Positions 4,232 to 12,587 of a DNA stretch of 64,000 bases are shown piece after piece. The notes under the pieces were generated by a model. It was not told where the DNA came from and made no database searches. It saw only the letters and a program-made list of their open reading frames with translations. Position 1 is the first letter of the stretch. Each line of letters begins with the position of its first letter. Where the stretch lies: the sequence record PX068454.1; one strand, written 5' to 3'. The stretch comes from a phage. The position numbers and the translations under genes were made by a program.

Positions 4232-4510
4232 TTAGGCAACTGTCATTTTACATTCTTGAAATTTTAGCACAAGACGGTGATTGTGTCTAGTGTCTAAAAA
4301 GATTTTTTCAACCATCAGGCACACGGTGTAACCGTCCATCTTGTTGACAACAAAATCCTCAGGGTGAGGGAGAATGTCCCCAGGATTGGGGAAACATAAC
4401 CCGCTCAAGAAGGCATCATCGGTGGTGGACCTGATGGATTTCCACACACTATCTGCCTGGACACTCTCACCAACATAATATACACTACCACATGCCTTCA
4501 TCATAGTCAA
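4232..4510 (-). CDS. hypothetical protein
   Basis: 92-aa ORF, overlaps upstream gene by 4 nt. Confidence 0.5.
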   Translation of the reverse strand: MTMMKACGSVYYVGESVQADSVWKSIRSTTDDAFLSGLCFPNPGDILPHPEDFVVNKMDGYTVCLMVEKIFLDTRHNHRLVLKFQECKMTVA

Positions 4511-5406
4511 ATCTCCGCGTAAATTAAACTGGAATCAGTATACTTCTTTAGTGGGTAAATATCCTGTCCATAGATGCCGTCATTAAACACCTCATCTACC
4601 CAAAGGCTACACTTATATCCCATCATCTCTAAAACACCCATCTCTTCTTCGGTAAACTTATCACCGCTCTTGCAAGATGTCAACACCTCATTCTGTACTC
4701 TTGCTACCTCGAAGCGATTATTGGCAATATCGCTATTAGCGATCAAATACTCACCCAAAGGGTGTGCGGCATTAAAGATGCACAGTGGACGGTTGACGTA
4801 ATAGTCTCCAGGTGTATAAAAATTATTGAGGTCTTTCACTAGAACATTCTTATCAGTCACTTCATTTATAACATCATGCATATCGCACATCTTTATATGT
4901 TTGAGGATTCCATCCCCCATCACAAAATAAAAACTTGCTGAAACACTTTCGGCATAGATCTTACTAGATCCGTTGTAGTTGTATTTTACTCGGATGCTAA
5001 CGGGGGTTTTTCCTGTCGCGTTAGCCATCATCCAAAGAAATGGCAGCTCATACTTCTCCTCTGAGGAAACAAAAGGTGAAGTAGCCAGAGATCGAAAACC
5101 TCCAGAGAAGTTGAAAGTTACAGAACCGCTCCGGCGGTATGATACTGCGTATTCTACTTTTATATCAACGTATCCGTTGGAGTAAGTATGCCCTCCATTA
5201 TCAAGGTATGTCCACTTATCAGACCCGGATACCAACCTCCGCTCAATTACCTTCATCACCATAGGAATTAGCGGATTAGTACAAACCGATCTTGAAGTAG
5301 CTTTATCATCCAAAGCCTCGTAAATTGCAGAAAGGATATCTCCAGCTGAAAGATTGGTTGTTATATCCTGTTGCCACCTGGTGCTAAAACTGTTAAGATT
5401 TGCCAT
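4507..5406 (-). CDS. hypothetical protein, first gene of minus-strand early operon
   Basis: 299-aa ORF; SD AGGAG 8 nt before ATG at 5406; promoter immediately upstream. Confidence 0.65.
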   Translation of the reverse strand: MANLNSFSTRWQQDITTNLSAGDILSAIYEALDDKATSRSVCTNPLIPMVMKVIERRLVSGSDKWTYLDNGGHTYSNGYVDIKVEYAVSYRRSGSVTFNFSGGFRSLATSPFVSSEEKYELPFLWMMANATGKTPVSIRVKYNYNGSSKIYAESVSASFYFVMGDGILKHIKMCDMHDVINEVTDKNVLVKDLNNFYTPGDYYVNRPLCIFNAAHPLGEYLIANSDIANNRFEVARVQNEVLTSCKSGDKFTEEEMGVLEMMGYKCSLWVDEVFNDGIYGQDIYPLKKYTDSSLIYAEI

Positions 5407-5445
5407 GAATAAGTGCTCCTATGTTAGTTTTCTTTCGAATGGGTG

Positions 5446-5475
5446 CACTATATCGGAGATTTAGAGTAAAGTCAA
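5446..5475 (-). promoter_or_regulatory. sigma70-like promoter (minus strand): TTGACT - 17 nt - TATAGT
   Basis: Read on minus strand: TTGACT ttactctaaatctccga TATAGT, about 40 nt upstream of ATG at 5406. Confidence 0.6.
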
Positions 5476-5488
5476 CACGTTTTTGAGG

Positions 5489-5517
5489 TTGACATCTCCC
5501 CAGGCTCTTGGTAAGAT
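5489..5517 (+). promoter_or_regulatory. sigma70-like promoter (plus strand): TTGACA - 17 nt - TAAGAT, A/T-rich upstream
   Basis: TTGACA at 5489-5494, TAAGAT at 5512-5517; -35 hexamers of the two divergent promoters form inverted repeat GTCAAC/GTTGAC 13 bp apart. Confidence 0.6.
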
Positions 5518-5548
5518 TTCTCCACCCACAGAGAACAAGAGACAACTC

Positions 5549-6538
5549 ATGAATCTTGAAAAATATTATACACCAGAAGAGTTAGAGCGCTTGCTCAAAA
5601 AATACAGACGCAAACAGAATAACGCACGGAAACGGGATATAGAGTTCAACCTGTCATGGGAAGAATATCTCCTATTTGGTAAAAAACTTTTAGGAGAGGG
5701 AGTATGCGACTATACCCTTATACCTTTCGACATGCACACAGATGAAAACGGACTGGGAAATCCTTTCTACCCATCTCTGGAGCGGATAGATGATGAAGGT
5801 CCTTATGCGGTTGATAATTGTTGTGTGGTGGGATTGAGATGCAACTCCCTAAAGGACTGCCTGGTAGATAAAAAGACCGCAGTCTTGATTAAAGACAAAA
5901 CTGATCGAAAAATTGTCCAGCAGATGATGCTCCACCTGAGCGAAGAGCGTATGGAGAAATTGAAAGGTGATTACACTTTTGAAGATTTCATCTTGCAATA
6001 TGGAACGGAAGAGGATAAACTGGCACTCTTTGACGAAGAATGGGAGGAAGATATGTCACCAATGCAGGATTTTAAAAACTTCATGGCTAATCGTGGAGCC
6101 AACAAGCACATTTCTGACATTGTAAACGAGCCTGTAGTAGAGGAGATTGAAGAGATGACGCAACAGGCTTACGAAGAGGAAAAAGAGCCTCAAGGGGTCG
6201 AAGAAGAGCTTACAGAAGAGGTTCCTGCACTGCCTGACGATGTTGAGATTGCCAAAGCTTACACTTTCTATTGCCAGACGTTCTACGATGCAGGTATGAA
6301 AGTTGATCTGTCCTTCAGCCAGTTTAAGAGCACATACATTCGAAAATGTTGTGCTTTAACTGGTGAGCGTCTCGGGGCCGGACTTAAACCACTATTAGTT
6401 ACCGACTGGAACAAAGGTTTCACCAAAGGTAACTTCATGGTAGTATCTCCAATCATGGAAAAGGCTATGACAGACCTTATGAAGACCACTCGCATGACAA
6501 TGACCGAGTTGGCTGGTATTTTCAAGCACGTTAAATAA
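5549..6538 (+). CDS. early protein with internal duplication and central acidic linker; function unknown
   Basis: ORF-track start 5483 lies upstream of the promoter -35, so start moved to in-frame ATG 5549; N-terminal segment (FNLSWEEY...GEGVCDY...) and C-terminal segment (DLSFSQF...CCALTGERLG...) look like repeats flanking an E/D-rich linker. Confidence 0.55.
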   Translation: MNLEKYYTPEELERLLKKYRRKQNNARKRDIEFNLSWEEYLLFGKKLLGEGVCDYTLIPFDMHTDENGLGNPFYPSLERIDDEGPYAVDNCCVVGLRCNSLKDCLVDKKTAVLIKDKTDRKIVQQMMLHLSEERMEKLKGDYTFEDFILQYGTEEDKLALFDEEWEEDMSPMQDFKNFMANRGANKHISDIVNEPVVEEIEEMTQQAYEEEKEPQGVEEELTEEVPALPDDVEIAKAYTFYCQTFYDAGMKVDLSFSQFKSTYIRKCCALTGERLGAGLKPLLVTDWNKGFTKGNFMVVSPIMEKAMTDLMKTTRMTMTELAGIFKHVK

Positions 6539-6542
6539 TGAC

Positions 6543-6568
6543 AGGGGCCATTGGCCCCTTCTGGAGTT
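6543..6568 (+). terminator. intergenic hairpin AGGGGCCATTGGCCCCT, attenuator or terminator-like
   Basis: Perfect 7-bp GC stem between 5549..6538 and next gene; near-identical palindrome recurs at 12562. Confidence 0.35.
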
Positions 6569-6571
6569 TTA

Positions 6572-8032
6572 ATGGATAGCAGAAGTTCAGAAATCATTAC
6601 CGCACAAAAAGATGATGCCTTGCGAATGCTGCAGGCCGCTCGCATGTACCTTCTTGAAAAGCTGCCGTTTTATGGCACACTGTTGTCAGGGTTGCAGTTC
6701 GTAGAAAACCACACATGGTGCTCCACTATGGCAACAGACCATAAACGCATCTACTACAGCCCTGAGTTCATTATGGGGTTGGCAGATGAGCGTAAAACCA
6801 TTCTTAAAGCATCTCTGACTGACAAGCAGTTTGAGATGGCTGAGGTTTTCTATTCCCCAAAATCTGTGAAAGAGGTGGCCTTTCTTCTGTCACATGAGGT
6901 GGGGCATATTATCTGTGATCATCTGGTCCGTGGTAAAAGCTTTGAGCCGGAACTGTTCAATATTGCTTGTGATCACGTTATCAACACAGGTCTTGTGGTT
7001 GACTTTAGCAAGCCTCCTTGTGTTTTCTTCCCGAAGGGGAAAAGCACTGAGTTCGTAAAAGGTAAGCCTTTTGGCTTCTTAGCTAGTTGCTACTGTGACA
7101 TGAAGTTTCATGGATGGATTGCTGAGAACGTCTATGCAGTTCTTGATAAACAAAGAGATCAGAATGGCGGTAAAAGTAAGAACGGTAAAGGTGAGAACTC
7201 CCAAGGAGATAAACGACAAACCGATGATCACATGAGGGGGAACGGTGGCACCAGTGATGATCTTGGAAAGGCTATGGGGTATGATCAGCCGCAACCAGTA
7301 ATCAGTCAATCTGATAAAGATCAGGCCATGCAGGACTCTGGTGACATGTTGGAAGCAGCAATGCAAGCTTCAGGAGGTCGTTGCCCTGAGGCGGTGCGCG
7401 AGTTTGTCAAAAACAAAGGCAAGCCTGTAATCAACTATATAGATATTATTAAGCAACGTATGTTGTCTAAACGAAAGGCCGAGCTAACCTACAGAAAACC
7501 TGGTCGCCGATCTGGGTCTTTGACCACCACAATGCGAAAAGTTGGAGCTATAAACAAGAATCAACACGTTATTGTTCCTGGTCGTAATCCGGAAAACACC
7601 ATAGATATTGTAGTGGCTTTGGACGTTTCTGGATCGATCTCGCAAAGAACTTTAAAGAAAATGTTCAATGAGATCACCGGGTTGTGCAATTTGTATAAAG
7701 AGTTTAAGGTTACGATGTTCTGTTGGTCAACCGAGGTTGGAGAGGTTAAAGTATACACTCGCGGTAACATCGATGAGATGATCAACTATGAGGTCCACTC
7801 AACATGGGGCACAACAGCCGCCTGCGTGTTCGAGTATCTGGATGCTAACATACCGAATGCAAAAGATGTCATCGTCCTTACCGACCTCTACTTTGAGCAT
7901 AACTTTGAACAAAAGGCTGTTGACAACAAGTGGAAAAAGTACGATACTTTATGGGTTCTCACCGAAGGGTATAATAAAAATTATATCCCGAGCTTTGGGA
8001 AAACTGTGGAATTAATCGAGTATGCTAAGTAA
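6572..8032 (+). CDS. VWA-domain protein with N-terminal HExxH metallopeptidase-like domain (DUF2201-type architecture)
   Basis: HEVGHIICDH zinc-binding-like motif in N-terminal half; MIDAS motif VALDVSGSIS in C-terminal half; start taken at ATG 6572 (SD GGAG) rather than 6551 inside hairpin. Confidence 0.7.
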   Translation: MDSRSSEIITAQKDDALRMLQAARMYLLEKLPFYGTLLSGLQFVENHTWCSTMATDHKRIYYSPEFIMGLADERKTILKASLTDKQFEMAEVFYSPKSVKEVAFLLSHEVGHIICDHLVRGKSFEPELFNIACDHVINTGLVVDFSKPPCVFFPKGKSTEFVKGKPFGFLASCYCDMKFHGWIAENVYAVLDKQRDQNGGKSKNGKGENSQGDKRQTDDHMRGNGGTSDDLGKAMGYDQPQPVISQSDKDQAMQDSGDMLEAAMQASGGRCPEAVREFVKNKGKPVINYIDIIKQRMLSKRKAELTYRKPGRRSGSLTTTMRKVGAINKNQHVIVPGRNPENTIDIVVALDVSGSISQRTLKKMFNEITGLCNLYKEFKVTMFCWSTEVGEVKVYTRGNIDEMINYEVHSTWGTTAACVFEYLDANIPNAKDVIVLTDLYFEHNFEQKAVDNKWKKYDTLWVLTEGYNKNYIPSFGKTVELIEYAK

Positions 8033-8047
8033 GAGAGGATAGTATTT

Positions 8048-8305
8048 ATGGCAACAGAGGTAGTAATTAAAGCTGAACGCCCAGTTAAAAAAGCTATCAA
8101 CACGTTCCCTGTAGGAACCATTGTGAGCATGATTACAGAGTCAGGCCGTGTATCTACACTGCTAATCGTGAAATCTGCATGCTCATCTTGTGTGTGGGCA
8201 TACGATCTTGACGAGAAAGAACTGAAAGATTTTGTCGGGGAGCTGAAAGCAACAGAGCTTGACGCTCGTATCGAAGTATTTGGTGAAACTATGGAGGAAG
8301 AGTAA
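8048..8305 (+). CDS. small early protein, tandem paralogue 1
   Basis: 85-aa ORF; sequence pattern shared with next two ORFs. Confidence 0.5.
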   Translation: MATEVVIKAERPVKKAINTFPVGTIVSMITESGRVSTLLIVKSACSSCVWAYDLDEKELKDFVGELKATELDARIEVFGETMEEE

Positions 8306-8568
8306 TGACTACAAAAATCACCATTGCAGAACCAAAAGCTAACACGCAACCTATCGAAAAGTTTAAATGCGGTGAGGTGGTAACATTCACACCAGATAAT
8401 GAAGATGCCAAGATTTTTGCCATGGTTACAGCCGAGTGGATGTGTGACAATACCACACAGGTGCTGCGTTTTGACACCTATCTTACAGATGAAATCAGGA
8501 ACGACAAGATCGTGACTGGTGTGGATACTGAGATTATTTTCTACAAGAGCTTTTTAGAGGGTTTCTGA
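8305..8568 (+). CDS. small early protein, tandem paralogue 2
   Basis: 87-aa ORF; TAATG overlap with previous gene. Confidence 0.5.
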   Translation: MTTKITIAEPKANTQPIEKFKCGEVVTFTPDNEDAKIFAMVTAEWMCDNTTQVLRFDTYLTDEIRNDKIVTGVDTEIIFYKSFLEGF

Positions 8569-8569
8569 T

Positions 8570-8803
8570 ATGGCAAAAATTCGTAAATTATCCAGCAATC
8601 AGGTTGTGAAAGACTTTGAATCTGGAGAGATCTTGTATGTCCGTGATGCAGATGATGAATGTGAAGATCTTGTTATGCTGGTAGGGTACGCTGAAGACGG
8701 ATGCATCCAGGCTGTTTTTCTTGAAACAGCGATGGTGCACTGGATAGAGCTGGACCTGAAAGCACGAAAACCTAAAGCAGAAATCATTATTTACGAAGAT
8801 TAA
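8570..8803 (+). CDS. small early protein, possible tandem paralogue 3
   Basis: 77-aa ORF, 1-nt spacing. Confidence 0.45.
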   Translation: MAKIRKLSSNQVVKDFESGEILYVRDADDECEDLVMLVGYAEDGCIQAVFLETAMVHWIELDLKARKPKAEIIIYED

Positions 8804-8819: not shown

Positions 8820-9269
8820 GTGTTGAGCAAACGTGAATGCGACAGCATTAGCCTGAATTCTTATAAAAAACAATGGTTTGGGGTAGAAGTTTGCCGACTA
8901 CGGCTGGGCTCCTACTTGAACTTCGTCCATTATGAGAGTGACAGTCGTATCGTTTCTTATGAAGTGTTCTACACTAAGAATACATTCGAGCTGAGACGTA
9001 AGGTGGATGGCGGGAGATCTGCCGCCCAGAATAATTGGGAAACTATTCTGCCTCCAGATGTTATAGGAAGTCCCCTGAATGTATCTGAAGATGAAAATCT
9101 TATGGTTCATGCTATGATGGGACTTGACAGCTTAGAGCTGGCGATCTATGATATGTCCATCGAAGCAGTTAAGTTGGACTACATCGAAAACACTTTAGAG
9201 GAAGGTATCAAGAAGTTTCTCGGTGAGAAATTGAAAGCCCACTTTCATAAGGAGCTATATCTGTTATGA
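8820..9269 (+). CDS. hypothetical protein
   Basis: 149-aa ORF, GTG start with SD AAGGAGAGAG. Confidence 0.5.
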   Translation: MLSKRECDSISLNSYKKQWFGVEVCRLRLGSYLNFVHYESDSRIVSYEVFYTKNTFELRRKVDGGRSAAQNNWETILPPDVIGSPLNVSEDENLMVHAMMGLDSLELAIYDMSIEAVKLDYIENTLEEGIKKFLGEKLKAHFHKELYLL

Positions 9270-12553: not shown

Positions 12554-12587
12554 AAAAAGAAAGGGGCCATTTGGCCCCCTTTTTTAT
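12554..12587. terminator. bidirectional rho-independent terminator
   Basis: AGGGGCCATTTGGCCCCT hairpin flanked by A-run upstream and T-run downstream, between convergent genes. Confidence 0.7.

Follow-up and report, generated by a model that had tools for sequence, protein, structure and literature searches.

The gene described here lies at positions 5549–6538 on the plus strand of a 64,000-nucleotide stretch of phage DNA (record PX068454.1), which is referred to below, at its full length, as the window. Its coding sequence (CDS) opens with ATG 5549, closes with TAA 6536–6538 and specifies a product of 329 amino acids (aa). From 5300 to 6700 the DNA shares 95–99% identity with many Vequintavirus genomes, that is, with rV5/FV3-like myoviruses of E. 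coli such as ECO111 5-P, EmilHeitz/Bas49 and FV3. By sequence the product is the Vequintavirus version of rV5 gp11, a homologue of FV3_00011 and Bas49_0056 and a member of PHROG 3118; it is called gp11 throughout. The protein holds two copies of a nuclease-type fold known from the restriction enzyme PacI and from phage T4 Srd, of which the first retains the residues of the PacI-type active site and the second does not, with an acidic spacer between them.

A sigma-70-type promoter precedes the gene at 5489–5517 on the plus strand (TTGACA, 17 nucleotides (nt), TAAGAT, with the TG of an extended −10), 60 nt upstream of ATG 5549. This ATG is a credible start because the longer reading from TTG 5483 begins within the promoter. 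An earlier sequence-only reading of the window had proposed a genuine gene in first place behind a promoter, and both points stand; it had also taken this promoter for the strongest one on the plus strand, and within the 5 kilobases (kb) scanned the site at 9124–9152, with 11/12, outscores the one at 5489–5517. A minus-strand promoter at 5475–5447 is placed back to back with the plus-strand one, giving a divergent pair, and bidirectional promoters have been reported between genes 10 and 11 of rV5 (Kropinski 2013). Furthermore, a TTGAC(A/T)-17/18 promoter-like site is found 59–67 nt upstream of the ATG of the homologue in the Seunavirus GAP31, Acinetobacter phage ABPH49 and Aeromonas phage phiA047, which indicates that possession of its own host-type promoter and the position as first gene are conserved in three other phage groups. 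The promoter at 5489–5517 probably fires early, in which case gp11 would be made immediately after infection.

gp11 was detected by tblastn in 241 phage records. In each of the 118 Vequintavirus-type records, gp11 occupies the same locus as the first of its transcription unit, with at least 80% of the query covered. It is present as well in Seunavirus and Mydovirus phages and in phages of Klebsiella, Salmonella, Cronobacter, Erwinia, Acinetobacter and Aeromonas; phages of Vibrio and Pseudomonas gave matches to the N-terminal (N) domain only. gp11 is a conserved core gene. Sixteen records labelled as Campylobacter phages (MG065654, MG065655, MG065672, MG065682 and others) carry a gp11 that is 92–98% identical to that of the E. 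coli Vequintaviruses, and their host attribution looks doubtful. With a threshold of E ≤ 1e-3 an exhaustive profile search yielded 11,634 cluster representatives, of which 495 also passed E ≤ 1e-10, and both domains were covered in about 130 of the best 150 representatives at 50% identity, with lengths of 225–350 aa. In the window the domain pair is single-copy.

The public labels attached to this protein conflict, ranging over anti-sigma factor, anti-termination, HNH endonuclease and restriction endonuclease. Bas49_0056 is labelled “anti-sigma factor” and FV3_00011 “HNH endonuclease; similar to rV5 anti-sigma factor”, a 92%-identical protein is named “type II restriction endonuclease” in one database source, and rV5 gp11 was described in 2013 as “probably a Srd homolog” (Kropinski 2013). 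PHROG 3118, named “HNH endonuclease”, matches gp11 over its full length (E 5.2e-112, residues 3–328 against profile positions 2–286 of 287), and PHROGs 3322, 1035, 4592 and 1400 also match the region of the N domain. PHROG 3118 is the same two-domain family and spans the Vequintavirinae together with Aeromonas, Acinetobacter and other phages; its family name is a computed label, and the Vequintavirus lineage stands apart within it by a long acidic spacer. The HNH label in RefSeq and PHROGs would suit a selfish homing endonuclease gene, yet the gene holds an identical position throughout the 118 Vequintavirus-type records and also in related genera, a distribution that is not sporadic, and the canonical catalytic His is absent, with Arg79 in its place; a homing gene is therefore hardly to be expected here.

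Four segments make up the protein, all encoded on the plus strand. A PacI/Srd-type beta-beta-alpha-Me (His-Me finger) domain comprises residues 8–112 (5570–5884) and was modelled by AlphaFold2 (AF2) with a predicted local distance difference test (pLDDT) score of about 90–97. It is followed by a helical extension of residues 113–164 (5885–6040), with conserved D119 and Y142 and AF2 helices at pLDDT 84–90, by an acidic spacer of residues 165–227 (6041–6229) that is predicted to be disordered, and by a C-terminal (C) domain of residues 228–329 (6230–6535), a degenerate copy of the PacI/Srd-type fold that keeps C268, T271, D286 and N295. In the whole-protein AF2 model, residues 1–164 (pLDDT about 85–97) and 228–329 (about 89) are confident and the stretch between them is unstructured.

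Neither Pfam nor NCBIfam gave a match for the whole of gp11 or for either half at E up to 10. On the other hand, the sequence-only reading had held that no function was assignable by motif, and profile and fold searches now assign the two halves to the PacI/Srd branch among the His-Me finger (HNH) nucleases: both show the beta-beta-alpha-metal fold, similar to PacI, which is the closest solved structure and the only relative in the PDB that is detectable by sequence. Foldseek comparison with viral models returned HNH proteins of giant viruses and phage proteins labelled “anti-sigma factor”. In the His-Me finger classification, PacI and proteins of giant viruses are placed in group 20, for which Pfam has no entry (Jablonska et al. 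2017; PMC5714182); the Foldseek matches fit this group, and the silence of Pfam and NCBIfam is consistent with it.

The evidence for the internal duplication comes from profiles of the N (residues 8–112) and C (228–329) domains that were built from 143 diverged family representatives. Aligned with hhalign, the two profiles matched with a probability of 98% (E 6e-14, score 71, 80 columns aligned), as compared with scores of 9.1 ± 1.6 (maximum 13.6) for 100 column shuffles of the C profile and 9.2 for a reversed control. The aligned segments are the very ones, residues 33–56 and 253–276, that the sequence-only reading had quoted as two related cysteine-containing segments. Pairwise BLASTP of the gp11 halves was not significant (E 4), which means that the repeat is old and detectable only by profiles; even a 12-sequence profile reached no more than P 0.003 for the duplication, and significance came with the 143 representatives. 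T4 Srd links the halves independently of their direct comparison, as its residues 30–80 align to both N and C (BLASTP E 9e-8 and 5e-4) and the protein matches the two profiles at E 3.5e-18 and 4.4e-9. The hidden Markov model of the C domain also picks up the N domain (independent E-value 0.0015). At the level of sequence profiles, the homology of the two Cys-containing domains is confirmed, and with it an ancient internal duplication.

Longer proteins of related build were seen in metagenomic data. P0128 (852 aa) and P0153 (827 aa) each contain four matched stretches of the PacI/Srd-type domain and have no Pfam match, so longer tandem arrays of this domain exist. Natural gene pairs split into N-only and C-only proteins were considered as support for a heterodimer and were dropped, since the “C-only” representative P0053 proved to be a contig-end truncation.

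The kinship to PacI defines what the two copies have kept and lost. When the 143-sequence family profile was run against PDB sequences, PacI was found at E 6.8e-4 over its residues 30–123; a shallow profile of 12 sequences found no PDB relative. A joint alignment gives a motif common to the PacI, T4 Srd and gp11 clades, C-x-Y-(C/S/T)-G ... (D/E)-R-x-(D/N)-x3-G-Y-x3-N ... N-x-x-(K/R). PacI lacks the catalytic His of the superfamily, which is replaced by a Tyr in the inter-strand loop, and holds its single metal by one Asp and one Asn (PMC5714182). By alignment, the metal and catalytic residues of PacI would be D92, Y100 (the sole Tyr of that loop) and N113, and their putative equivalents in gp11 are E78, Y86 and N99; R79, N90 and K102 of gp11 align with R93, N104 and K116 of PacI. 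The corresponding codons fall within 5780–5854 on the plus strand and specify E78-R79 (5780–5785), D81, Y86 (5804–5806), N90 (5816–5818), N99 (5843–5845) and K102 (5852–5854).

Conservation is concentrated on these positions. Mean column identity in the set of 143 relatives is 16%, and no column is invariant except those of R79, Y86 and N90. Position 78 is Glu in 122 and Asp in 21, position 99 is Asn in 138 and His, the canonical HNH ligand, in five, and K102 is kept in 139. The combination that defines PacI, Tyr in place of His with Asp/Asn-type ligands, is found in the N domain and not in the C domain, where the columns at the catalytic positions are hydrophobic or variable (F/Y/W/L, V/I, V/I/F, Q/G/A and L/M). 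What the two copies share is the Cys and the Thr/Ser of a former CxxC knuckle, D81/D286 and N90/N295. Because the C copy folds alike without it, the fold does not require the catalytic-type set, and the fact that this set is invariant in the N copy therefore points to function, which would most simply be catalysis.

In other respects gp11 has moved far from PacI. PacI (PDB 3ldy/3m7k) is a homodimer of 142-aa subunits with two Cys4 zinc sites, one of them in an N-terminal zinc ribbon; in gp11 a single chain unites both “subunits”, of which one is catalytically degenerate. gp11 has no N-terminal CxxC...CxxC ribbon, and of the residues aligned with C63, C66, C109 and C112 of PacI, namely C53, T56, G95 and C98, only C53 is conserved, so that the inner zinc site keeps one of four ligands in each domain (C53 in N, C268 in C). 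Read from the alignment, both structural Cys4 zinc sites are lost in both halves. SMAD MH1 and other inactivated His-Me fingers provide a precedent for a fold that serves binding only after catalysis has been lost, and the C domain of gp11 resembles them in this; there is no sequence relationship to them, and the N domain of gp11, unlike these proteins, keeps the catalytic set.

These comparisons bear on the idea that gp11 damages host DNA without RNase E, as a DNA endonuclease or nickase with specificity for a site or a structure, which would be an offensive use of a PacI-like enzyme. The closest solved structure and sole sequence-detectable PDB relative is indeed a DNA restriction enzyme, the database name “type II restriction endonuclease” for the 92%-identical protein agrees with this, and a tandem of one live and one dead site is the design that might be expected of a nickase. 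Nevertheless, the zinc ribbon and Cys4 sites that shape the DNA-binding surface of PacI are missing, and the nearest characterised phage relative, Srd, acts on RNA decay. We regard a purely DNA-directed enzyme as rather improbable.

The acidic spacer was the third feature of the sequence-only reading, and a low-complexity acidic linker between the copies does exist, with 30% Asp/Glu and a net charge of −15 over residues 165–227. AF2 assigned pLDDT below 50 to residues 165–176 and 178–227. A 63-aa stretch within the spacer, with a net charge of −18, is the most acidic among the 117 open reading frames (ORFs) of the window that reach 100 aa, narrowly ahead of those at −16 and −15, and no DNA tandem repeat that might explain the acidity was found in the spacer. 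Its character is specific to the lineage: the inter-domain segment measures 84 aa with a net charge of −22 in the Vequintavirus lineage and a median of 36 aa with a net charge of −2 in the family, where only 29% of members have −5 or below, and the folded domains are mildly basic on average in the family (net +2 and +3.6). These figures speak against a functional core or a DNA mimic in the acidic segment, which looks like an expanded flexible tether.

An acidic DNA mimic with anti-restriction function, at which the sequence-only reading had hinted, was suggested by the overall acidity of gp11 (isoelectric point 4.8, net −20), by its probably early expression and by the extreme stretch in the spacer. 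The hint found no support, as the acidity resides in a predicted-disordered segment whose length and charge are not conserved and which most relatives have in a short, near-neutral form, and the conserved folded domains are mildly basic. In known DNA mimics the carboxylates form a rigid, folded array, and no family of the Ocr or ArdA type matched gp11. Mimicry is thus a very unlikely explanation.

The only characterised relative of gp11 is T4 Srd (NP_049634), whose residues 9–92 match the N domain (hhalign E 7e-14). The two proteins share the motif string C-x-Y-(S/T)-G ... E-R-x-D ... G-Y ... N ... N, and both come from virulent coliphages in which their genes are early or are predicted to be so. 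They differ in architecture, as gp11, unlike Srd, has the helical extension, the acidic spacer and a second, degenerate copy. Residues 96–248 of Srd were compared by hhalign with the N, C and helical-extension profiles and gave probabilities of 0.2–0.3%, so that this half is neither a hidden second degenerate copy nor the counterpart of the gp11 extension, both of which had been considered. With its remaining residues, about 150, unmatched, Srd makes gp11 a relative and not an orthologue, and RNase E binding is not simply transferable from one to the other. As relayed by papers citing Qi et al. 2015, RNase E is bound by T4 Srd at its catalytic N-terminal half and thereby becomes more active on host mRNA.

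NP_049634 nevertheless bears the label “Srd anti-sigma factor / postulated decoy of RpoD and RpoS”, which is an older postulate. If gp11 were an anti-sigma factor or a sigma-70/sigma-S decoy that switches transcription, the annotation in many records, the rV5 paper and the names of PHROGs 4592 and 1400 would be explained; the label, however, is inherited from this old postulate on T4 Srd. The fold is a nuclease fold, no sigma or anti-sigma family of Pfam or NCBIfam matches gp11 (E up to 1–10), no Pfam sigma family matches T4 Srd (E up to 10), and the Srd partner that has been shown experimentally, according to the papers that relay this work, is RNase E. We give the decoy little credence.

A more serious competitor is a non-catalytic adaptor of the Srd type, which would bind and stimulate the catalytic half of RNase E, or bind RNA, with the conserved residues serving binding or folding. 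The effect of T4 Srd on the stability of host mRNA reportedly depends on RNase E, and Srd is said to associate physically with the N-terminal half of that enzyme. The match between the N domain and Srd (E 7e-14 to 3.5e-18) and the loss of the zinc sites agree with such an adaptor. On the other hand, the residues kept without change in all three clades (PacI, Srd and gp11) coincide exactly with the catalytic positions of PacI, and these positions are dispensable for the fold, since the C copy adopts it in their absence. Cyanophages and giant viruses have the domain as well, which excludes RNase E binding as its general role, and the C-terminal half of Srd is absent from gp11. An adaptor is possible on this balance, and we consider it distinctly less probable than the reading given next.

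We put at roughly 45% the probability that gp11 serves early host takeover, carries a live and a dead site of the PacI/Srd type and acts on host nucleic acid, possibly via RNase E. The alternatives rank below it in the order of Srd-type adaptor, RNase E-independent DNA nickase or endonuclease, sigma decoy, DNA mimic and homing endonuclease. In the proposed scheme, gp11 would be expressed from its host-type (sigma-70) promoter immediately after infection and would work as an asymmetric equivalent of the PacI homodimer within a single chain. The N domain would provide one catalytically competent tyrosine-type active site, the C domain, as a dead copy, would contribute binding of nucleic acid or of a partner, and the spacer would act as a flexible tether and possibly as a mild auto-inhibitor of the basic domains. 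gp11 would thereby attack host nucleic acid during takeover. Host mRNA is the most plausible target because T4 Srd, as the only characterised relative, acts on host mRNA decay, and the likeliest outcome would be an acceleration of that decay together with RNase E. A role in host takeover had also been the guess of the sequence-only reading, from gene position; it is the best guess here as well, by homology to Srd and PacI, and the homologues found are a restriction enzyme and a host shut-off factor, not a housekeeping phage protein that would speak against such a role.

A bolder version can be formulated, in which the proteins of the Srd family, T4 Srd included, would be neither decoys nor passive activators but active, tyrosine-dependent, zinc-less His-Me finger nucleases, and gp11 would be a natural single-chain heterodimer with a live and a dead site, a built-in nickase or single-cut RNase that cuts host RNA or DNA to start shut-off, with RNase E finishing the task. 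We hold this version to be possible but less likely than not.

Several points weigh against the proposal of a live/dead takeover protein. Literature searches found no experimental work on gp11-type proteins. Because the effect of Srd on mRNA needs RNase E, the Srd-type domain itself may not be catalytic, and the conserved residues of the N domain could serve binding or folding instead. Srd itself has a single copy of the domain, followed by a Lys-rich helical region of about 150 aa without a match in gp11, and the loss of the zinc sites might compromise the active site. The packing of the two domains against each other is not confident in the AF2 model (predicted template-modelling score 0.51), so that the pseudo-dimer geometry is an idea only. 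Furthermore, we know of no modification of Vequintavirus DNA, and an unspecific DNase would for this reason endanger the phage itself.

The surroundings of the gene offer further observations. The 34-nt gap between the gp11 stop codon and the next gene contains a GC-rich hairpin at 6544–6558 (GGGGCC-ATT-GGCCCC), whose stem is identical in EmilHeitz and FV3, with a different loop in each (AAT and AA). It may be an attenuator, a terminator or a stem that protects the mRNA end, and any part of it in gp11 function is uncertain; a near-identical hairpin lies at 12563–12578. Just downstream of gp11, the plus-strand gene 6573–8032 encodes a DUF2201 metallopeptidase and VWA-like protein (Pfam E 1.5e-28 and 3.3e-11). 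The usual partner of DUF2201/VWA proteins, a MoxR ATPase, is encoded on the other strand beyond the divergent promoters (at 425–1609 in locus L001). The order of gp11 and the DUF2201 gene is syntenic within the Vequintavirinae and recurs in Seunavirus and in a metagenomic contig. It is not kept in the Acinetobacter and Aeromonas phages, and the neighbour was therefore dropped as a clue to function.

Annotation of the neighbours is uneven in the relatives as well. RefSeq gives the name “HNH endonuclease” to the DUF2201 metallopeptidase/VWA genes FV3_00012 (4239–5732 in locus L002) and GAP31_033 (4745–6181 in locus L004), a label that seems to have slipped over from the adjoining gp11 homologue. 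Several small neighbouring genes in relatives are named “tail protein” or “replication initiation protein”, names for which no basis is apparent. The name “putative alpha 1-3 fucosyltransferase”, which relatives carry for the minus-strand gene at 4507–5406, looks unsupported, as no Pfam match was found at E up to 1. On the plus strand at 8048–8803, three consecutive ORFs of 77–87 aa, abutting or overlapping by one base, resemble an array of paralogues; they showed no significant pairwise similarity (best E 5.3), and the notion was rejected.

The gene, the PHROG 3118 family and the kinship to Srd are already on record. Our literature searches found no description of the tandem architecture with one live and one dead copy, of the link between the Srd domain and the tyrosine-type PacI branch with a fully conserved catalytic set, or of the loss of both zinc sites. 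In the rV5-like Vequintavirinae, a large group of coliphages that are candidates for therapy, gp11 heads a transcription unit predicted to be early, and its recognition as a PacI/Srd tandem of this kind, with a tyrosine-type set, makes a contradictory annotation correctable. If gp11 were only a binding adaptor, this would be an ordinary refinement of annotation. Beyond that, the “anti-sigma/decoy” label is called into question, and host shut-off proteins of the Srd type may be enzymes, not decoys. Should they prove to be enzymatic, the mechanism of T4 Srd in RNase E-dependent decay of host mRNA would be reopened.

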